Notes under the pieces: model-generated | Told to the model about the DNA's origin: nothing | The model's input: the letters and a program-made list of their open reading frames with translations, nothing else | The model's database searches: none | NCBI GenBank assembly: GCA_039545335.1 | Contig: BCIN01000007.1 | Span: 930,001 to 994,000, forward strand | Length of the DNA stretch: 64,000 bases | From: Kondoa subrosea | Lineage: Eukaryota | Direction of reading: 5' to 3' | Program-made: the position numbers and the translations under genes | In this document: one piece after another, positions 26,663 to 54,288 of the stretch | Numbering within the stretch: the first letter of the stretch is position 1 | How the letters are laid out: each line of letters opens with the position of its first letter

Positions 26663-28012
26663 ATGTTAGTTTGGCCTGGCTGTCTCTGAGCTATCTGCTG
26701 ACGCTGTGTAACCTTAGGTCTGACTCAAAGGTTACTGCTCCCGCTGTAACATTGGCTTAGGAATGGCGTTCTGACGTGTTTTTGCAGATTTACGTTGGAA
26801 ACCTTTCATGGAAGTAAGTCTCTCCTGTTGCTTTGCCTTTCAGTTATGCTGACTCCTCTGTGCCCTCCAGTACATCCGATGACAGCTTACGCCAAGGTCG
26901 ATAGCTTTCACAATCTCATACTCGCGTGCCATTCTGACGTTATTTCTACAGCTTTCAGGTAAGTCTTCGGAAGAAAGCATTACATTGGCTTTTGCCTGAC
27001 TTCTTGGATCTCAAGCAACTTTGGCAATGTTATTGACTGCAGTCCGTTATTTCAATGTTACAATTGCTCTTTTTCCTTATGCCAAGCGTGCTTTTTTTTG
27101 CCATTCTTGTGTTTTCAGTTGTCATGAAAGATGTAAATTACTCTTCGCCAGTGTTTGTGATTTGTCTTGGCTCTGGTTTTACTAAGAACTGCTTGTGTGC
27201 TCTCAGAGAGAAACTGGTCGATCTCGTGGTTTCGGTTTCGTCACCTTCTCTTCTCAAGGTGAAGCCGATACTGCCGTTCAACAAATGAACGACCAAGATC
27301 TCGTTCGTCATTCTTCTCTTATACAGGGTGTAGTTGCACTTCTTGTTCGTTTTGAGGCTCTTGGATGCTTTTTGCGTTTTTGATGTGTTACTGCACCCTA
27401 TTTAAATCTGGGAAAGAGGTTCTGATTATTGCTTTTGCTATCCTCTTCTTCTATCTGCTTCTACACTGCTGCTCTCCTTCGATGTGATGCTGCTACAACT
27501 CGATAATTTTGCCTGCGAACCAACATCGAAATGCTTGATCCAAACTCATCTACATCACTACTGCTACTCTCTACTGCTACATCTAATATTGGCTTGGCTC
27601 CATAGGGTATGTTTAGTGCATATCACAATCATCAGACTCTAAAACTTCCTTAGACGGTCGTCAAGTCCGCGTTAATGTCGCCAACCAAAGAGCCTCAGGA
27701 GGAGGAGGTGGTGGATTCGGCGGAGGAGGAGGAAGAGGAGGCTATGGCGGAGGCTATGGACAACAATCTGGAGGAGGTTATGGACAACAATCCGGAGGTT
27801 ATGGCCAACAGTCAGGAGGCTACGGACAGCAAGCTTCAGGAGGCTATGGACAACAGTCTGGTGGATATGGCCAGCAAGGTGGATATGGCCAGCAAGGCGG
27901 ATACCAGCAAGGTGGTCAAGGTGGCTAGTCAGTCTTTTCTCACCATGCAGCATCTCGCGAAAGCTGATATTGTGTTCCCTTTTTCTATTTAAGCGGAAAC
28001 CAAGGTTACTAG
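26663..28012 (+). CDS. Glycine-rich RNA-binding protein (single RRM plus GGYGQQ tail; GRP/CIRBP-like), built from microexons
   Basis: Spliced [52 protein letters not shown]...[16 protein letters not shown], showing RNP2 and RNP1, then a G/Y/Q tail ending YGNQGY*. Confidence 0.93.
27752..27925 (+). repeat. Coding GGYGQQ(S) imperfect tandem repeat (prion-like low-complexity tail)
   Basis: Repeated ggNtaYggNcaRcaR units of 18-24 nt. Confidence 0.85.
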
Positions 28013-42813: not shown

Positions 42814-44330
42814 TTACGCTTTCATTGACGCCCAATCTCTGGGATATGTAACAGCATCTAATAGATCTTTTTCTCTCGATCCTTCTACTGTTCCTATCTC
42901 GGGCATATATTCCCATCTTGCGGCTAACGGCAAACTCATCAAAATGCTCTCGATTCTCGCTCCAGGCGTTCTCAGGCCAAATGATGTTCCTCTGTCGTAA
43001 ATCAGATTGAACTCCGCATATTTCCCCTTTGTCCATGTTTTAGCCAGTGTGCCGAGCATACAGAACTAAACTCACCCTTCTTATCCCTTGCCAACGTTTC
43101 TCTTCTTGTCCAAATGGCATACTCAGCCTCTTGCGAATGATGGGTTCATAAGCAGGCAAGAAAGCTTCCCCACAAGTTCGAGCTAAAGCAAAGATTTCTT
43201 CCTGATCATGTTCTGCACCTAAATCATCGAAAAAGATTCCACCAATCCCTCTCATTTCATTGTTTCGATGTTTGATTCTGAAATAATCGTCGCACCATTT
43301 CTTGAATCGAGGGTAGTAAGAGAGATCATGAGCGTCACAAGCTTGTTTGTATGTAGAGTGGAAATGAGTTGCGTCTTCTGAGAAAAGGTAAGAAGGGGTT
43401 AGATCGGTTCCTCCGCCAAACCACCAAGTTGCTGGTTGACCTGGATTAGCTGGATCTTCTACCCTGATGATCTGATACTTTAGCAGTGTTGCATTCGATG
43501 CGCGTGATCAACATACTCAAAGTAGCGATAGTTGAAATGTACTGTCGGTGCATATGGATTTCGGGGATGGATGACTGACGAGATCCCACAAGCGAAGAAA
43601 GGTAACGGGGTCTTCTCGTCATACCAGCTCTACGTCCTCCTCTCATCCTCAGTTCCACTCCTCTTTAGATGGGAACAGACTTACAAACTTTCCACCATGA
43701 TCCGCTCGCATTGCTTTCACAGCAGCAGGTGGTAAAGTTCCATGAACAACACTAACATTGACCCCAGCTTTCTCAAACACTTGACCATCTTGCAGAACGC
43801 ATGAAATACCTTCACCACCTTCTTTCCTCAACCAACTGTCTCTTAGGAAGGTAGCAGGAGGATGTTTTAATTCAGTAGAAGCAGTAGAAGAAGTGATTGC
43901 GTTGGGAGAAGATTCGATTTCTTGCAATTGAGTTACTAAGCGTGTTTGAAGTGATTTCACCCATGAAGACATTCGAGTTCGCATTGGTAAAAGAGGATCA
44001 TCGTATTCTGGATTAGGAGGAGAAGGAAAAGGTGATTTCTGCCTTACATTCAGCTTCATAGCTCAAGCGATAGAGGAAGACATACTATGCTTGATTGACT
44101 TGCAGGTGATTCTAGCTGAAGAGGTTCGCGCTGTTGAAGTAGTTCAGCAGACGCAAGCGTCCCGAAGTGAGACTCACTTTTAGAAGTACAGCTACAGCTA
44201 CGATAGAGCCAAAAGCGAGCGGCACAGCGCTGAACCAGAAAGTCGTATTTTGGGTATTAGCAGTAGACAGCCCTCGTCTATTGATCTGATGCCTGACAGG
44301 CCTTGCAATCAATGTTGGAAGTCGCTGCAT
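42814..44330 (-). CDS. HEM13: Oxygen-dependent coproporphyrinogen III oxidase
   Basis: [51 protein letters not shown] and [29 protein letters not shown]. Confidence 0.97.
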
Positions 44331-44968
44331 TGAAGCAGAGCCGGAGAAGATCTGTCTAAGGATTAATGTTTGGTGACTTCGTCACATCGGGATGAGACGC
44401 GAGTTTTGGCAATGGGTGTCACGCCGAGTCGCGTTCTCACGTTATCCTTGCAGGCTCTTATTTATCGATACATTACACATACATGATGAAGATGAATCGA
44501 GCACAATTACATCAACTGAAAGAAGCAGCGGAAGGCGAAAGATCATTACTTGATTCGGGAATCTCTGACTTCATTGTACTAAAATGGCGAGCCTGAATTA
44601 CGAAAACAATAAGAACAACATTACATCTGATGAGTTGGAGAGAAAGCTCACGACATAACACAAAGATCTGTAACGTCTTACATCTTCTGTGGTATCGCAG
44701 GACTGCCATGGTATCATCTCCTACCTCTCTTGCATCCTCTAGGCTTCGAAATACTGATATCAAATGATCCGGTGTATAAATCCAAAAGAAGAAGGGATAT
44801 CCAGGGTACTGCAATTTCATGATATCTTTGCTCAGGATATCGTTGTAGACGGATACAGCTATATTGATGCTCAGAAAGCGCGTGGACAGCAGCTGTGAGG
44901 TTCCATCGATTCAGTATCAGTAGAAATCAATATAAATCTTGCTCACATATAGGACGCCTCGAGTGCTT

Positions 44969-45892
44969 TCAACTCCATCTCAAGCTCAGTCCTCTCAAAC
45001 CAGCAAGAGCTTCCATTTGCATTCTGAACCAAGCTCCCCTTATACCCCAAACCTCATCATTGTGTCCTTCAATTTCCTCATGCCGTTTGCTCTCAATCCC
45101 TTCATCCATATCCATATTCACATCAGATTGCGCTTCTGATGGTTGATATGTTTTAGCGATGACCAACTCTTGTAGACTAGCCAAACAATTTAGGTTTTGT
45201 AAAGACAGGTAGAAATGAGTTTGAGGAATATCAGTCGATCCATAGATATGAAGCGACCGGAGAGAAGATGGTAAAGAATTGAGGAAAGTGGTATTGAAGA
45301 CGACTTGATCCACGTGTAGCTCTTGTAGATTCGTACATGTGCTCAGGAGAAGATTGAGCTTCGAAGCAAGTATAGGTTGGGAAGGGTATTGAGCTATTCT
45401 GATAGTTTGAACGAGGTTTGCTAATGCTGGAGATCTGAGTAGGAAAAGCAAGTGATGTGTGGGTGCAGAAATATGTACGGAAGCTCCGCAGAAGAGGAAC
45501 TTGCGAATCACCTGCAATGCTTTGGCCGTTGTCTTCTCGCACAAGACGGGTCTAGTGCATGTCAGAGACAGACGATAGATGGAACCTCTGAGTTCTTGGC
45601 GAGCTTGTAATGTCCTGGCTAGCCTGACCAAGGTTGAATCAACCTGACAAAACAGGAGTCTTTGCTGTTCTGCCATACCGGGTCCGATGGTATATGTTCG
45701 CTTCCGCAGATTATCATAGGCTTCATTGGTATAGTCTACTGTGATGTCCCAATACAGAAGTCTGAACGCGAGCTGTGCCCAGAGCTTGTTCACCAAGCAA
45801 AGAGATCGGAGTGTCTTCTGCCTGTCTGGCCAGCCTGCCACTTCTGCTATGATCATAGCGCTGCATTCAGCTGGTAAATTCGAGATGTGCAT
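44969..45892 (-). CDS. F-box-like / RNI-like protein
   Basis: ISNLPAECSAMII...LRSLCLVNKLWAQLAFRLLYWDI F-box-like motif, plus CTNLQELHV and LPSSLRSLHI repeats. Confidence 0.65.
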   Translation of the reverse strand: MHISNLPAECSAMIIAEVAGWPDRQKTLRSLCLVNKLWAQLAFRLLYWDITVDYTNEAYDNLRKRTYTIGPGMAEQQRLLFCQVDSTLVRLARTLQARQELRGSIYRLSLTCTRPVLCEKTTAKALQVIRKFLFCGASVHISAPTHHLLFLLRSPALANLVQTIRIAQYPSQPILASKLNLLLSTCTNLQELHVDQVVFNTTFLNSLPSSLRSLHIYGSTDIPQTHFYLSLQNLNCLASLQELVIAKTYQPSEAQSDVNMDMDEGIESKRHEEIEGHNDEVWGIRGAWFRMQMEALAGLRGLSLRWS

Positions 45893-46460
45893 GTTTGCCG
45901 TTCGAGAACAACAGTCAGCACCATGTTTCGAGATATCTCTCCTCTCGAGCCTTTCTTATGCTACGCGCTAATAATACTCTCCAATGCTGCACTGGAGGAT
46001 CTACGCAGCTTACGACTCAGCTTTCTGACCGCTGTCTCAATTGATTCATTGCGCAGGGTCAAGCTATCTCTATGCAGACAGCCTTTGCTTCCACTGTAAC
46101 TGTATTGCTAGAAGATGGCCTATACGACTGCACGATGCTTTCCGTGTGGCCTCGTACCCCTTCTTGATTTCTTGCTTCAGAACTCTCGCTTCCGTCAATT
46201 TTGACCGAGATCATGTGTGGTCATCTAGAAAGTCTGCGCACGAATATCCTATCACACTTGCGGCGCAGATTCATCGGAGATTTCCGCTTTTCTCTCGTGG
46301 TTACCGGCTGTCAGATGTCGTAAAACGAATTCCATCGGGAGACTAGGCATGTATACACACTAGCAGTAAGTCCTGAAAGAATGTCTGGGCATTCTTCTTT
46401 TTCTTCATACTGTACAACTCTGCATTCTTTCTCCTTTGCCTCTTCAAAAGTACGATAGTC

Positions 46461-48233
46461 ATGTCAGGTTTGCCAGATGCAGCAATCAAATCGCTTGGAG
46501 CCCGTTTCGTTGGCTGTGGGTCTTTTCCTCCGAGCCTATTTATGTCTAGCTGATTGGCGAACAGATATAACGAGCTCGGCATTAGAAAGTACTTCATGCC
46601 TGCCACTTCCATCGGGCAACTACTAAATGAATCTCGTTGTTCCAGGTGTCATCCTTGTGAGCCTTTCACCTCATTCTATACGTGGAGCATTATTGACAGC
46701 TTTCTGATAGTCGCTGGCTTGGCAAGTAGGTGCATCTATCAGGGATGCATGCGAGGTCTCATCGTCGACGATAGTATTACTATCACTTCAATAGTCAGTC
46801 ACGCAACATTCCTCGATCCATCTCTCTAATCTTTCCTGCGTGACCAGGTGTCGACCAAAGATGGCTGCAAATGCTGGTTGGCTGGGTCGTTGCTTTAACC
46901 CTTGCCAATACGATAGCCAATTGTATGGCGGTCTATGACATTCATGTCACTCACTGGCTGGATGTTTCTTACTTCGGGTACCTTTCAATGCTCTGTGGTA
47001 TAAAGATGTGTGCTAAAGAAGGATTGGCTTGGCAGTTATCTACCACCGTATGTTGCTAGAGCTTTTACCCAACTCATAGTGATGTGAGTATAGATCTTTG
47101 GCTGTTGATCCGACATTCAATGGGTACGTTGCAAGCTTAGGCGCTGGCAGAGTCTTCGCTAAACATCTTCGCAGATTGATCACCGCATGTGAGTGTGTAT
47201 ATAACAAGACAAACTAGACTCTGAGCTAGTCAGCAGCGGTGCAATTCTACTTCTGCCGTCGCTGCTATCTCTTCATGCCAAAGCATTCGATTCTCACCAA
47301 AGCTTTCGTTGGCATCACTGGACTTATTCTGTTGTGGATTGTAGCCGGAGGTGCTACTATTTCTTATTTGGCGTGGCCAAGGCCGAACGATGGCGGAGGT
47401 AAGGATCAGATCTGATTGCTTGGAGATAGCCATAACTAAGCATTGTCTTTCCTTCATCACAGTCACTGGTGTTTTAGCTGGAAGCATTCAAGGTTTATAC
47501 GCCGCGTGGCTATCAGCTTCAGTCTTTCTGGATGTCTTGGTCTCCAGTGTACTGCTTTTCCAGCTGTACAGCGCCCATGACCGCACGACATACGATGGGA
47601 CCAAAAATGTTATCATCAAAGCTGGTCTGATGGTCAGTAACAATTCCTTTTCGCTTCTCCGCTTAAGTAACTGGTTTATTGCTCAGATTATGAACACGTA
47701 CGCCTCTCTGCCTGTTTCTTGAATGCGTTCTCAATATGGCAACAGAGCTATTCTCGCTGCCGCTCTGCAGATTGCTGCGACCGTGCTCTTCTTTGCTCGG
47801 AAAGATGTACTTTTCGGTAGTGGTACATTGGTGCGGTCTCTCATTGTGTTTGCATTGACAGATTCTCTACTTTGCGGCGCTTTATGAAATCATCGCAAAG
47901 GTTTACTGCAGTTTGTAGCGATCTAAAAAGAAGCAAAGCTTTTCTAATACATTCTTCTGCAGTCTGCTTACTTATCCAGCTCGTGTCTCGTAAAGCTCCT
48001 TCGAACGGGACGTCTAGCTCGAAAGGGAGCAAAGTACGTAATCGAGCTGGTAACGGAAGGGATGAAGAAGTAAGCTCCTCCGCTGCATGCATGTGGCCGT
48101 TGCAACAATCTTACATCATCTCAATCAGCACACCGATAGACTTGCTCCTGTCTACAACTCCGACTGGAATGGCGGAATCAAAGTACATACAGCGACCATT
48201 GTCACCAAAGAGAAGGGGGAGGATAGTTTCTAG
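46461..48233 (+). CDS. Multi-pass membrane protein, DUF6534-like, tandem copy A (many microexons)
   Basis: MSGLPDAAIKSLGARFVG...YYYHFNSVDQRWLQMLV...VQFYFCRRC...WLSASVFLDVLVSSVLLFQL...KEKGEDSF*. The family assignment is by recall of the WL..s...DvlI pattern. Confidence 0.7.
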
Positions 48234-48812
48234 GACAGCCTGCTAGACTGAGTCGGTCACCTTCTCACCCATCTCCAATAAAGGCTCACTCTATTTCAGT
48301 ATCAAGCCCTTAGCCCTTGCATCTCCAGGCAGTGTCATAATTGTGCTGACTCAGCTGCATCTATCATGCATCGATCTCGCAGAAAATGCTATCCGACCGC
48401 TGATGGCTTGCCGGCATTCTGCGCTCTGACTACGATTTTGCGAGGACTTGGATACTTTATTGCGTGCTGGCTACGCGATCGCTGCTCCTCTATAGAGGCT
48501 CTATCTCCAATTCCTGAGTCTACGCTTGCTACTGGCCTGGTTATGTTTCTTTCCCATTGTTCCGATTTGTGCACACGCATCTATCGATTCTCGATTGTCT
48601 GAAATTACATTGGTACATAGAGCTACCCAAGCAGAGCCACCGTATGCATCTGAAGGGAGATGATGCGACCGCTTTGCTCTGTCTAATCCGGCCGGGAGCG
48701 CCCAAGAGGTCTATGCAGATGTCGCGGATCCTCAGAATATCTGGGCGAAATAGGACTACAGGCTTCTTCTCCTCCAACCAGTTCGCTCTGTTCTCTTTGT
48801 ATACAGCACAAA

Positions 48813-50706
48813 ATGTCAGCCCTACCACCCGCAGCCATGGAATCACTTGGAGCCCGTTTCGTTGGCTGTAAGTCGCTGCTTGAGCGCCTGTCGTTCCATT
48901 AGCTGACTCGATTGACAGACTTGACGAGCACTGCTCTGCAGAGTAAGTCTTCTGATCGATTCGATTTGCAAACCTACTGAATTGCCTTGTCTTGATCTCA
49001 GGCGTCGTTCTGGTGGGCCTCTTGACATAATCCACAGCTTTTGCAATGATAACAATGCTTGACAGTCATTGGCCTGGCATGTACGCGCTATCTATCGATT
49101 GCATGCTAGCTCTGATCACTAGGAATGCTACAGTATTACTATCATTTCAACAGTCAGTCATATAAGTTCGTTTGTGTCACGCCGCTTATCTATCTGCGGA
49201 ATCAGGTGTGGATCAGAGATGGTTACAGTACCTAGGTATATACACAGTGTCCACGAGACTGTTGGAAAACTCACTTCAGTGATTCCTAGTTGCATGGGTG
49301 ATTGCTTTAACCATGGGAAACACCCTGGCCAATTGTGTCGCGCTGTATGATATCCATGTTGCCCACTGGTTGGATATTACGTACCTCAGGTAAATTCCGA
49401 TCGCTTGATCTGGAAGACTATTGCTGAAGAGCAATGTTGCACAGTTATTTGCCACCGTACGTCTGTTCTGTACGTTTTGAGCTCGATCTGACCAGTATGT
49501 AGATCGCTTACCGTGGATCCGACTTTCAACGGGTGCGTCAGAAGCTGTCAAGGATCGGTTGAGCTTTCGCTAATCACCTCTACAGACTTATCACCGCTTG
49601 TAAGCATTAGTTGGGTTCCACTGGATTGGACCTGATCAAACGAGCAGCGGTCCAATTCTACTTTTGCCGTCGTTGCTACCTCTTTATGCCAAAGCAATCG
49701 GTCTTTACCAAGATCTTTATAGGCTTTGCGGGCCTTCTTTTGCTGTGGATCGTCGCTGGTGGTGCAACAATCTCTTATCTGGCTTGGCCCAGACCAGGAG
49801 ACGCGGGACGTAATTTGCCCCTTTACGATTGTTATACTCAGCGTTAACTGTCTATACGACTACAGTGGCTGGAATCTACGCCGGAAGAGTTCAAGGTGTA
49901 TATGCGGCTTGGCTATCAGGCTCAGTCTTCTTGGATGTCTTGGTCTCCAGCATTTTACTCTTTCAGCTTTACGATGCACATGATCGCACCACTTATGATG
50001 GTAAGGAGCATTATCATCAAAGCTGGGCTCATGGTCAGTAGAATTTGCTAAGTCGGTCTACATAGGTACAAGGAGCATTATCATCAAAGCTGGGCTCATG
50101 GTCAGTAGAATTTGCTAACTGCCAGTCTACATAGAATCAACTGAATGGCGTATGCTCAGATTATGAACACGTATGTTCCATTTATTTCATTCATCCGCTT
50201 AAGGTCACGGCTTCCTTGCAGAGCTATTGTTGCAGCCGCTTTACAGGTCACTGCGACCGTTCTCTTCTTTGCTCGAAAAGATGTTCGTTCTCGCAATTGT
50301 CTCGACCTCTCAAGACTGATATTTGTCACAAACAGGTTTTGTATTTTGCTGCGATCTACGAGATCATTGCGAAAACCTACTCTAGTAGGTCGCCGTTTGC
50401 TAACGAGCATGGTGTCATACTTATCCATTCTTGTTTAGTTTGTTTCCTCATTCAGCTCGTATCTCGCAAAGCACCTTCTGAGGCAACTTCTACCTCGAAA
50501 GGTACCAATGTAAGGAACCAAATTGGCATCGGAAGAGAGGAAGAAGTAAGCTCCTTCGCTGCCCATTCCTGTTTGTCACGCTCATCAGTATTTTTCGTCA
50601 GCACTCTGACAGACTCGCTCCTGTCTACACTCCTGACTGGAATAGCGGCATTCAAGTCCATACACAAACGATCGTACACAAAGAGAAAGAGGAAGATAGC
50701 TTCTAG
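48813..50706 (+). CDS. Multi-pass membrane protein, DUF6534-like, tandem copy B (two extra introns relative to copy A)
   Basis: MSALPPAAMESLGARFVG...WLSGSVFLDVLVSSILLFQL...KEKEEDSF*, colinear exon by exon with copy A. Confidence 0.7.
50001..50134 (+). repeat. Imperfect direct tandem duplication (65-nt and 69-nt units) spanning an exon-intron junction
   Basis: aaggagcattatcatcaaagctgggctcatggtcagtagaatttgctaa is present twice, and each unit ends gtctacatag. Confidence 0.95.
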
Positions 50707-51995
50707 CCTCTACTATCACGAGTTTGTCATCTCCTTTCTACACACAGTTCCAAGCTGAACTGATTCCGTCCGATAGATTCTGGTTGTGTCGGTATGTCAA
50801 CGTACGAGGCTTGACTCTTCTGCAAGATGGATGCAGTGGGTAGCAGTTGCACTTGTAATTGCATACAAATGTTGTTGTTTGTGCATCGTCGTTATATCTT
50901 GTTCGGGATATCGACAACATGTTATCTTGAACTTGTACGCATACAGATCGCGTCACATCTGGTCAGACCGGGGTGAGGGCGACCTTCTTCACTGTTTATC
51001 TTGCGGCTTTGATAAGGCAAACATCAATGAAAGCCTGATTTCTTTGCACAGAGTAGATACGAGAGGATACAGCTCCTACCAGAGTAATCGTTCACAAATC
51101 ATCATGCGGTAAGGTAAAGCCAATGGATTTGTGAAGGACTTGCTAGCGGAAGCCACTTCAACAGTCAATTTGATAAGATTCACACGAGATCAAGAGAAAA
51201 TCGAGACATGCTGGAAATGGGTCGTGAACTTTGATCGCCCAAAAGCAAGACATTTCATTTCTCTCGAACCGCAAAAAAACACCTCAACCTTGATCAGTAC
51301 CTGCTCCTGCGCTTGCGTTGCTGTTGTGGTGAACAGAATATTGTTGTGATTCTTTGCAAGCGAATGAAGAATGTGTAAACCAAGGTCGAGAAAAACCGCT
51401 TCGGAAGAATAAAGATGGCGCTGAAGAAGATATAGGGCGATCAAGAGGAAACTCGTGCTAGCCAGCCATCGCCTTTTGTATGACGCGCTATTGTTGTTGT
51501 TTGTTGGAAGCGACAGCTAGCGAGACGAGCCAATGACCCAGAAATTGCTAGACCGAATGTAGATCTTGACAACAGCGAAATAACGAGGTACGATAGATAA
51601 GAGGGATACTTCTGTGTCTTGACGTTGCCAAAATTGAAAGAGTAGGTTCGCGTGCCAACGCTTTCTCTTGTCTAGAGGGGTATAATAAACATATGAGACA
51701 GGACCGCTTAATGCCAACAAATATTCCCTGGTGATCTTGATGAAGTCGTACAGTAATTGAAAGATAATAATTGAGACCCAAAAAGCCAGATGAATGCAGC
51801 GAAAGAAGAAAAGGCAAGAGAAAGCGTTGACCGAGCGAGAATTTGTAGCATATGCCGAGAAGAAGTATTTCAGAGAAGAAGATAGGAGTGTGCTGTTGAG
51901 AAAGAACCATCGATCTGCCACTGGATGTTAAGCAATCTGTACTGCTGCAACAGATAGAATCACACACCCTTGAAAGCCGAACTCAAGCGGAATGC

Positions 51996-54288
51996 TCAAG
52001 CAGAAGGTGCCTGCGCGCCATTCTGCCCTTGCTGCCTGTTTCTCTGCTGTTGACCTCCATTCTGCCTCCTTCCGTTCGGTGGACCATTGCGATATGGTGT
52101 GGGTGCGCTGCCTTGCTTGTCCAGCGGTGCCTCAGATTGGGTCTTTGCTTGGAAAGGAGGGATAGAAGGTTTACTAGAGCCGTTAGCTGCTTGCTGAGCG
52201 TAAGAACCAGATCTTTGCATCTGTTGAGGTCGAGCTTGATCCTGAGATTGATTTCTTTGTGGTTCAGGTAAAGCGGAAGAAGGAGGTGCTTGAGCTTGTT
52301 GCGATGTAGAAGACGACCGCTGAGACTGTTGTCTTTGTTGTTGTTGACCTTGCTGTCTTTGTTGAGGTTGCTGAGGCTGACCGTTTGAAGACATGGTTGG
52401 TGTAGGAGCAGCAGGAGGAAGAGGTCTTTCTGGACCTTGATCTATAAGACCAGGAGCGACGTAGAGGGCTGGGTCAATGTTCTAAGAGGCACAATGAGCT
52501 TCCGAGCACTATTTGCCAGGCATGTCACATACAGCAGGTATTGGCTGAATTTCAGTTCCGAGTTCTTGTTCTATTCTGTACAGGTTAAATCGATCTTCGT
52601 AAGTAATCAAATCTTGTAGACCAGAATATCAGTCCTCTGCAAACAATCTGCTGTGAAGGTAGACTCACTGATTGCCAAACCGAGATGTCCGAAACGTCCA
52701 GATCGACCAATACGATGTAGATATGTTTCAGCGTTCCTATACTCAAAATCAGTGTTTCAAGCTCGATAAATATTTATCACGGCGTACTTAGGGAAATCAA
52801 AATTGATGACACTGAAATGCTAATTAGTCAACTTCGCAAACATGGGCTAGAAGGAACTCGCGTGTTGACAGAAGGAATATCGATACCTCTTGTCAGTAGA
52901 TCAGAGCACACCAAATTCCGACACGCTCTATACAACCGGGGAAAAGAGTAAGATCTAATATCTAGTACTCTCTTCATCCGACGCACCCATTTCTGAAATC
53001 ATGGAACACTCTGTTTCGATGCGCTTGAAGCATCCTGGCATGAGAAAAGAAACAAGAATAGCCTAATTCGGTAATCTTCTTCGCGAGCAATTCCACTCTG
53101 TTTGTAGAATTGCAGAAAATGATGGATTGATTGATTTGAAGTTTGCCAAACAGAGTATTGAGGCAATGAACTTTCTGCTTCTCTTCCAAAAATGCATAGT
53201 ATTGAGTGACACCTTTCAAAGTCAATTCGTCCATGAGATTGATTTCGTGTGGGTTGACCATATGCTTGTCTTTGAAGTCTTTGACTAGAAGAGGGAAAGT
53301 AGCGGAAAAGAGCATAACTTGACGTTCTTTGGGTAAGAGACCAAGGATTTGTTCGATGACGACTGATTGTCTCTCTCTCAGCAAAGCAGCCAAGACACTT
53401 ATGATCTATTCCCATACCTGTGAATTCTGGTGATAACAGCTTGTCTGCTTCATCCATGACGAAAGTCGGGCATTCAGAAAGATCAGCAATCCCTCTACTC
53501 CCTAAATCTAGAATTCGGCCAGGAGTACCAACAAGGATGTGAACGGTTTCGCTAAGACGCAGGATATCATCTTTCAAAGTCGTTCCTCCCGTTGCGACCA
53601 TAACATTGAGATTGAGATGTTTGCCTAGAGTTTTGCAGACTTGAGAGGTTTGTAAGGAAAGTTCACGAGTAGGGACAAGAATCAGAGCTTGAATCTTTGG
53701 TTTCTTTGGATTGATCTTCTCTAATGTTGGAATCACGAATGCACCAGTTTTACCTGTTCCGTTCTACGGAAGATAACGATATCAAAATCGCTCCAGCGTG
53801 ACCTTCCTATTTCGTAACCTACCTTCGCTCGAGCCAAGATATCACGGCCAGTCAAAGCTATTGGGACTGTAGACACGGTTCAGTACAAAAGACTGCAGCC
53901 TAGCTAGGCGAATGACTAACTTGATTCTTCTTGAATAGGCGAAGGCGCTTCAAAGCCAGCTTCGTATATGCCCATCAAGAGCTGTCCACCAAAACAAGTT
54001 GTCATCAGTACTGAATCTGATCGGTACGCCGTCCAACGGACCTCTCGCTTGAGGAAGTAATCTTTTGGAACAAGTATGAGCATCTTTTTGCGAAATACAA
54101 CTCGGATATAGCTGGGCTGACCTTCAAATTCATTGCCTTTACGATTTGTGACATCCTGTAGACCATACACACTCAGACTAAAGGCCTGAGATGAGGTAGC
54201 AAAGACTAAAACGAACGCTTGTTTGCGGTCTTAGATCTTTCGGAGGTAAATTCAGGCTGCTCTTATCGAGCTGTGATGTAGAAGCCAT
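51996..54288 (-). CDS. DHH1: DEAD-box RNA helicase Dhh1/DDX6 with Q-rich C-tail
   Basis: [55 protein letters not shown] and [13 protein letters not shown]. The last exon includes the 51996-52394 Q-rich ORF. Confidence 0.97.

Follow-up and report, generated by a model that had tools for sequence, protein, structure and literature searches.

A candidate spliceosomal intron arising from a donor-side tandem duplication in one of two paralogous fungal-type membrane protein genes

In one of two neighbouring paralogous genes, 65 nt that are lacking from the other gene form the upstream copy of a tandem repeat made up of the end of an exon and the beginning of the following intron. This copy is probably a functional new phase-1 spliceosomal intron, a prediction based on signals and reading frame in the genomic sequence. 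All positions given here refer to the whole stretch of DNA analysed, 64 kb in length (hereafter the window). Recently gained spliceosomal introns with a recognisable source are described in PMC4974935 as few, so that the mechanisms of intron gain are known from a small number of examples. At the locus reported here both copies are legible, the paralog shows the uninterrupted state and every proposed intron signal is traceable to its origin. If the two-step course of events set out below is also true, a single locus would show the whole path from a duplication to a committed intron, with the source still legible.

The paralogous genes and their exon-intron structure

Two tandem paralogous genes, A and B, are located on the + strand of the window, which is eukaryotic and contains many short GT-AG introns. 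They appear to encode fungal-type membrane proteins, with several hydrophobic stretches in each, and the pair was revealed by direct repeats about 2.4 kb apart together with pairwise alignment. The exon-intron structures are our own predicted models, built from the open frame, the GT-AG borders and the colinearity of A and B. The genes and the parts of them that bear on the studied site are as follows:

46461..48233, + strand: paralog A, with 16 exons, 15 introns and 324 codons; no intron at the studied site
48813..50706, + strand: paralog B; counting 50001-50065 as an intron, it has 324 codons in 18 exons, with 17 introns
47598..47686, + strand: homologous site in A, with an uninterrupted exon end (47598-47632) and then an intron (47633-47686)
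49866..50000, + strand: exon 12 of B, ending in phase 1 inside codon 203
50001..50065, + strand: repeat unit 1, 65 nt, proposed as the new intron (phase 1)
50066..50134, + strand: repeat unit 2, 69 nt, consisting of 35 exonic nt and the first 34 nt of the old intron
50066..50100, + strand: proposed new exon 13 of B, 35 nt, colinear with 47598-47632 of A
50101..50159, + strand: the old intron, which is intron 13 of B (59 nt); its homologue is intron 11 of A (47633-47686)
50160..50170, + strand: micro-exon of 11 nt that fixes the downstream frame; identical in A (47687-47697)

Modelled without 50001-50065, the B protein aligns with that of A without gaps, and 254 of the 325 columns, stop included, are identical. 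Compared with A, B bears the mark of long and strong purifying selection (dN 0.132, dS 1.869, dN/dS 0.071), and dN/dS across the 121 codons 3' of the site is 0.098. Each of the 15 introns of A has a counterpart at the same place in B, where GT-AG is kept at all 15, and the shared introns are identical in 519 of 880 columns. Two introns are present in B in addition to those of A, one at 49236-49289 and the proposed one at 50001-50065.

The former (49236-49289, + strand) is a 54-nt, phase-1 intron of the form GTATAT...CCTAG that is specific to B, and B meets a stop if it is not removed. The five exon bases preceding it are also CCTAG, forming a short direct repeat. The possibility that this intron is a local duplicate too was rejected, since the alignments with its flanks scored 13, against shuffle means of 13.4 and 13.3, and there was no other copy in the window. 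It corresponds either to a gain in B or to a loss in A.

Both genes are strongly fragmented, with 975 coding nt split over 16-18 exons, and six tiny exons of 11-19 nt are conserved in the two paralogs (on the + strand in A at 46646-46656, 46711-46725, 46775-46793, 47036-47047, 47175-47188 and 47687-47697, with counterparts in B). These tiny exons would probably be missed by automatic annotation. Intron 3 occupies the same codon position in both genes (46657-46710 in A and 49013-49065 in B). The open frame of A requires the acceptor TGATAG, located 11 nt downstream of a TTGACAG that aligns with the acceptor of B, and the acceptor of this intron may have undergone a small slide between the paralogs. 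Elsewhere in the window, imperfect tandem repeats of 18-66 nt were detected at 27697-27915 (TRF scores 72-180); their units contain GGAGGCTATGGACAACAA, and the array looks like a low-complexity coding repeat rich in Gly, Tyr and Gln.

A, a close paralog of B, lies 2.4 kb upstream, and no third paralog was found in the 64-kb window by tblastn. No orthologue from another strain or species was found, an exact 27-letter pattern conserved between A and B having yielded 0 loci over metagenome contigs. As to the protein family, the one lead is DUF6534 (PF20152) of the Basidiomycota, which was obtained from an Atlas search with one exon (rank 2, score 0.93), with 169 shared features and the family on 58% of the members. 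Right-frame translations of single exons matched nothing in Pfam at E up to 1, apart from chance-level viral names well below the cut-off; as these exons encode just 42-56 residues, this is weak evidence. In a search of 5.8 billion clustered proteins, which comprise longer proteins, no relative was found for a 53-residue exon of B at E up to 0.001 or for a 56-residue exon of A at E up to 0.01. This blank contrasts with the good conservation between A and B, and it has two possible readings: few members of the family are present in that collection, or the word filter does not cope with queries this short.

The tandem duplication in paralog B

The original prediction, made from the sequence of this locus, held that paralog A is uninterrupted at the site and that in B the last 35 nt of the exon and the start of the following intron are present as a tandem copy. 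Our analyses bear out both statements. The exon of A runs through 47598-47632 directly into its intron. In B, TRF reported an array at 50003-50134 (period 67, 1.9 copies, 93% matches) with a score of 234, the highest of any tandem repeat in the whole 64-kb window. The local alignment of unit 1 with the next 135 nt scored 109, as against 13.8 +/- 2.2 for shuffled sequences, and 0 of 1000 shuffles reached 109.

The two units are identical in 63 of 69 columns, and their differences form two clusters. Unit 1 lacks the CA at its positions 4-5, so that GTACAAGG, which is kept in unit 2, becomes GTAAGG; the comparison of the units thus agrees with the 2-nt loss that had been claimed. The second cluster, unnoted by the earlier reader, lies just after the branch-like motif and comprises a 2-nt gap and 2 substitutions. 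The 49 nt between the clusters are identical in both units. The microhomology at the repeat borders amounts to 1 nt only.

The extra 65 nt of B are a local tandem copy and therefore represent a gain in B rather than a loss in A. Judging from 2 substitutions in 65 nt, compared with a dS of 1.87 between the genes and with 519 of 880 identical columns in their shared introns, the duplication event appears to be far younger than the A/B split, and some time may have elapsed since it took place. In the 64-kb window, blastn found no copies of unit 1 beyond itself, unit 2 and the homologous site in A. An introner-like element or a transposon insertion was considered and rejected, as extra copies of this kind are lacking within the 64-kb window. 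No minus-strand open frame of at least 40 residues crosses 50058-50134, and no Rfam family was found in 44000-53000; an explanation of the site through the opposite strand was rejected.

Reads had been named in the original prediction as the means of excluding an assembly artefact, and they confirm the duplication. We used Logan contigs, built by a different assembler from that of the window, from the only two runs in which the stretch was found (X1 and X2), both of them DNA runs of one sample from one study. The sample is possibly the source of the window, and the two runs therefore do not represent an independent strain. In both runs, the contig graph breaks as expected for a true tandem repeat: the flank contig stops at 50032, and another contig continues from 50089. 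The shared 49-nt contig (50003-50051) has a depth of 309.5 against 143 in X1 and of 122.4 against 53.4 in X2, that is, 2.2 and 2.3 times that of the flanks. The 78-nt contig that bridges unit 1 into unit 2 (50022-50099) is at flank depth (149.3 in X1 and 53.7 in X2). A junction between the units at full depth argues against an artefact, and equally against the admixture of an allele with a single unit.

In favour of an artefact, assemblers sometimes mishandle tandem repeats that are shorter than a read, and X1 and X2 share a single sample, possibly the window's own source. However, besides the single-copy depth of the junction contig in both runs and the raised depth of the shared 49-mer, the two units differ in 6 columns, which would not result from collapse or stutter. 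The sole joint that skips the region, a joint in X1 omitting 112 nt, is paralog A laid on B: it occurs on the same 78,007-nt contig, and the intervening letters are those of the intron of A. It is thus extremely improbable that the genome contains a single unit and that the second one is an error of assembly or sequencing. The duplication is confirmed as real for this sample, and an artefact is excluded for it.

Splice signals and reading frame of the candidate intron

Donors (-3 to +6) and acceptors (-10 to +1) were scored with matrices derived from the other 31 introns of A and B. These reference introns (n=31) are taken from our own models and, given that the 15 A/B intron pairs are homologous, are not independent of each other. 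The relevant signals in unit 1 are the following:

50001..50006, + strand: proposed new donor GTAAGG, 5.3 bits, derived from GTACAAGG by the 2-nt loss
50034..50039, + strand: copy of the authentic donor GTCAGT, 7.0 bits, inside the proposed intron and a possible competitor
50047..50052, + strand: GCTAAG, a branch-like motif with its second A (50051) as the possible branch point
50061..50065, + strand: proposed new acceptor CATAG, 3.6 bits, from inside old intron sequence

Four of the 31 reference donors score lower than GTAAGG (reference range 2.8 to 9.0 bits, median 7.0), and intron 10 of A has the identical donor hexamer. The undeleted form in unit 2 scores -1.4 bits, below all the references (0/31 lower), and the loss of CA raises the donor from this value to 5.3 bits, from below to within the reference range. 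The CATAG acceptor exceeds 2 of the 31 references (range 2.0 to 8.4 bits, median 6.4), and 6 of the 31 reference introns end in TAG. Both new splice sites of the candidate intron are weak for this gene pair, though within range. The proposed intron has a GC content of 0.43 and, at 65 nt, is just longer than any of the reference introns (46-64 nt).

The branch-like GCTAAG had been placed about 15 nt before the terminal CATAG. The motif is indeed present, but the distance needs correction, as the second A stands at 14 nt from the end of the intron (50065), against 23 nt for the ACTAAG in intron 10 of A. The claim that the old intron was the source of both the acceptor and the branch-like motif also holds, their equivalents in unit 2 being GCTAAC (50114-50119) and CATAG (50130-50134). 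GCTAAC is nearer to the usual fungal branch consensus than GCTAAG. The second cluster of changes turns the former into the latter, which could help or harm. The same cluster removes a CAG that stands between the branch motif and the acceptor in unit 2 (50123-50125), and this loss may help the splicing of unit 1. The argument is a weak one, because chance might place two clustered events in stretches that matter for splicing.

The earlier interpretation was borne out in part: a local tandem gain in B with GT and AG borders, an in-range donor and a coherent frame was upheld, whereas the splicing of the unit, a loss of the 2 nt after the duplication and a very young age would be its predicted parts. 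It had missed a competitor, the donor at 50034, which is stronger than the new donor (7.0 against 5.3 bits). This site lies only 32 nt from the new acceptor (50034-50065), and the two are therefore too close to pair. Joined to the old acceptor, donor 50034 gives a 126-nt intron, a frameshift and a stop at residue 268. The resulting message would differ from that of the new-intron route solely in lacking the dinucleotide CA after GATGGTA.

The consequences predicted for the reading frame were reproduced: removal of 50001-50065 gives a frame of 324 residues that is gapless against A, and its retention leads to a stop within unit 1. We also considered the paths to the 11-nt exon at 50160, with introns limited to 45-135 nt and with GT donors and AG acceptors admitted only if they were no weaker than the poorest site among the 31 reference introns. 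Four such paths exist, and one of the four is open, namely the removal of 50001-50065 and 50101-50159, which leaves exactly 324 codons. An unscored enumeration, with GC donors and any AG allowed, was uninformative (251 open solutions), and the scored version was used instead. The removal of 50001-50065 is the sole plausible route to an open frame colinear with A.

In-range donors are generated by 3 of the 34 possible 2-nt deletions in the copied exon part and by 3 of 1009 when the coding sequence is counted in together with the copy, and other frameshifting deletions would just break gene B. The position of the 2-nt loss would thus constitute the strongest argument for a functional rather than a merely broken allele. 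Both 2-nt indels lie near the ends of unit 1 and may have been left behind by an imprecise duplication, in which case this coincidence would weigh less. What can be read directly in the DNA is the duplication together with its signals and the logic of the frame; that the spliceosome uses the new sites sufficiently to keep the gene working is what we infer from them.

Course of events and alternative explanations

We propose that a 69-nt piece of B, consisting of 35 bases from the end of the exon and 34 from the start of the intron after it, was duplicated in tandem, and that the junction of the copies would have set an AG directly before a GT. The upstream copy (50001-50065) would now be removed from the transcript as a phase-1 intron. 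Its signals would be GTAAGG, which exists only through the 2-nt loss from the exonic GTACAAGG, the branch-like GCTAAG and a TAG acceptor, of which the last two would both have originated within the old intron, in its 5' half. The downstream copy would give the new 35-nt exon, followed by the old 59-nt intron, such that the same 324-residue membrane protein would be encoded.

In the order of events that we put forward tentatively, a perfect duplication would have come first and would have lengthened the old intron, with unit 2 buried within it. This state would have been harmless because the upstream copy of the true donor, spliced to the old acceptor, yields the original message. The loss of CA would then have shifted the frame of the copied-donor product, which put an end to that route, and would also have brought the GT with which unit 1 begins up to a working strength, and the gene would have been committed to an intron with two sites that had never been splice sites before. 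A later loss of the competing CAG before the acceptor would represent a first step of optimisation. Such a two-stage path, in which a harmless duplication is followed by one 2-nt deletion committing the gene to the new intron, and later by optimisation, would be a donor-side variant of intron gain by tandem duplication; we consider it a real possibility, with less than an even chance.

The same arrangement may have been generated in one step, an alternative that concerns the order of events and not splicing. An imperfect copy would have come from a single repair event, GTAAGG and the changes before the acceptor would have been born with the duplication, and no intermediate would ever have used the copied old donor. 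The differences between the units are confined to two tight clusters, 3-4 nt from the left end and 7-14 nt from the right end of unit 1, the intervening 49 nt being identical, and the 1-nt microhomology at the borders is of the kind seen in end-joining rather than in slippage between repeats. These features make a one-step origin a realistic prospect, not far below an even chance. However, a perfect duplication would be harmless at once through donor 50034 and the old acceptor, so the two-step path involves no harmful intermediate before the deletion, and time explains the two substitutions equally well.

The other main alternative is that B is a young null allele or pseudogene, broken by the duplication and the 2-nt loss, and that the resemblance of unit 1 to an intron is accidental. 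Unit 1 would then remain unspliced, with a stop inside it, or donor 50034 would be spliced to the old acceptor, with a frameshift. The scores of the two donors (7.0 against 5.3 bits) and the position of the new acceptor near the bottom of the range are consistent with this scenario, as are the close paralog 2.4 kb upstream and the indels near the ends of unit 1, which resemble those of imprecise repair. A decayed pseudogene was rejected, as it would require several disruptions and B has none besides the site: its 16 other introns are GT-AG, and there is no further stop or frameshift. In a fresh null allele, further defects would not yet have had time to accumulate (63 of 69 columns identical), so the otherwise intact state of B says little. 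Against it, the deletion hit one of the few positions (3 of 34) at which a loss yields an in-range donor right where unit 1 begins, and the alternative intron of 126 nt is twice the length of any of the 31 references (46-64 nt), compared with 65 and 59 nt by the new route. B has, moreover, long been under strong constraint (dN/dS 0.071), which makes a tolerated loss less likely. We regard a null allele as unlikely, though it deserves serious consideration.

Several features speak against a new intron. Its donor and acceptor are below the reference medians (5.3 against 7.0 and 3.6 against 6.4 bits), a full-strength copy of the old donor is located inside it, its branch-like motif is GCTAAG rather than GCTAAC, and its length exceeds that of all other introns in the set. 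The indels near the ends of unit 1 may be repair scars, and the data come from one sample, in which the allele could be a private null and A could cover for the lost B. If the new intron is confirmed, the locus would show that a frameshifting deletion which gives rise to a splice site can do no harm or can even be of advantage. If it is refuted, the locus would show that a fresh null allele can closely mimic an intron, a reason for caution with gene predictors.

Comparison with known cases of intron gain

Intron gain by tandem duplication is already known, and PMC4974935 lists vertebrate ATP2A1, two fission-yeast genes and a potato RdRp gene as cases. In the classic model, as outlined there, a duplicate within a gene sets an AG beside a GT and one copy becomes an intron, the protein remaining unchanged, and the same would apply to B. 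However, the classic model copies a purely exonic AGGT piece, whereas the copy in B spans the exon-intron border and becomes a predicted intron. Unlike in the model as presented in that paper, AG and GT meet at the junction of the copies in B, and a further 2-nt loss was needed for an in-range donor. The fission-yeast cases share with the B locus a fungal setting and a short piece, copied in tandem within a gene, that turned intronic or, in B, probably did so. They differ, as reported, in having multiple copies of a 24-bp exonic AGGT piece, with support from expressed sequence tags, while B has one copy of 67-69 nt that includes intron sequence.

In Drosophila (Lehmann et al. 2010, PMC2891723), duplications containing a proto-splice site with one copy intronised have likewise been proposed, and the new introns are also described as having weaker sites. 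However, the cases set out in that paper were inferred from proto-splice-site scores, the source having faded, whereas the source in B is still identical in 63 of 69 columns. A recent intron difference through local duplication in an intron-rich fungus, as in B, is also reported for Cryptococcus CNN00420 (Sharpton et al. 2008, PMC2395259). For this gene and for Arabidopsis TOUCH3, as cited in PMC2395259, the account is that of a whole existing intron copied together with its flanks, which amounts to propagation. In contrast, neither of the splice sites proposed in B was previously a splice site, so the process there would be one of creation.

The closest likeness is to potato PGSC0003DMG402000361 (Ma, Lan and Niu 2016, PMC4974935), in which, as in B, the copy crosses an exon-intron border, a formerly exonic GT serves as the donor and further signals come from the parental intron. 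According to its description in that paper, the potato copy involves the acceptor side (intron 1 and exon 2) and inherits a true branch site, pyrimidine tract and 3' site. The copy in B, by contrast, involves the donor side: the true donor is inherited but would be bypassed, and a cryptic branch-like motif and an AG from the 5' half of the old intron would be used. The potato intron is reported there to have been detected in transcripts, whereas that of B is predicted from genomic sequence. No donor-side case of intron gain by tandem duplication was found in the literature searched, and we make no claim that none is in print. The B locus, as a candidate intron, would be the donor-side mirror of the potato case, with the inherited true donor bypassed, and if confirmed it would provide the donor-side counterpart to that acceptor-side gain.
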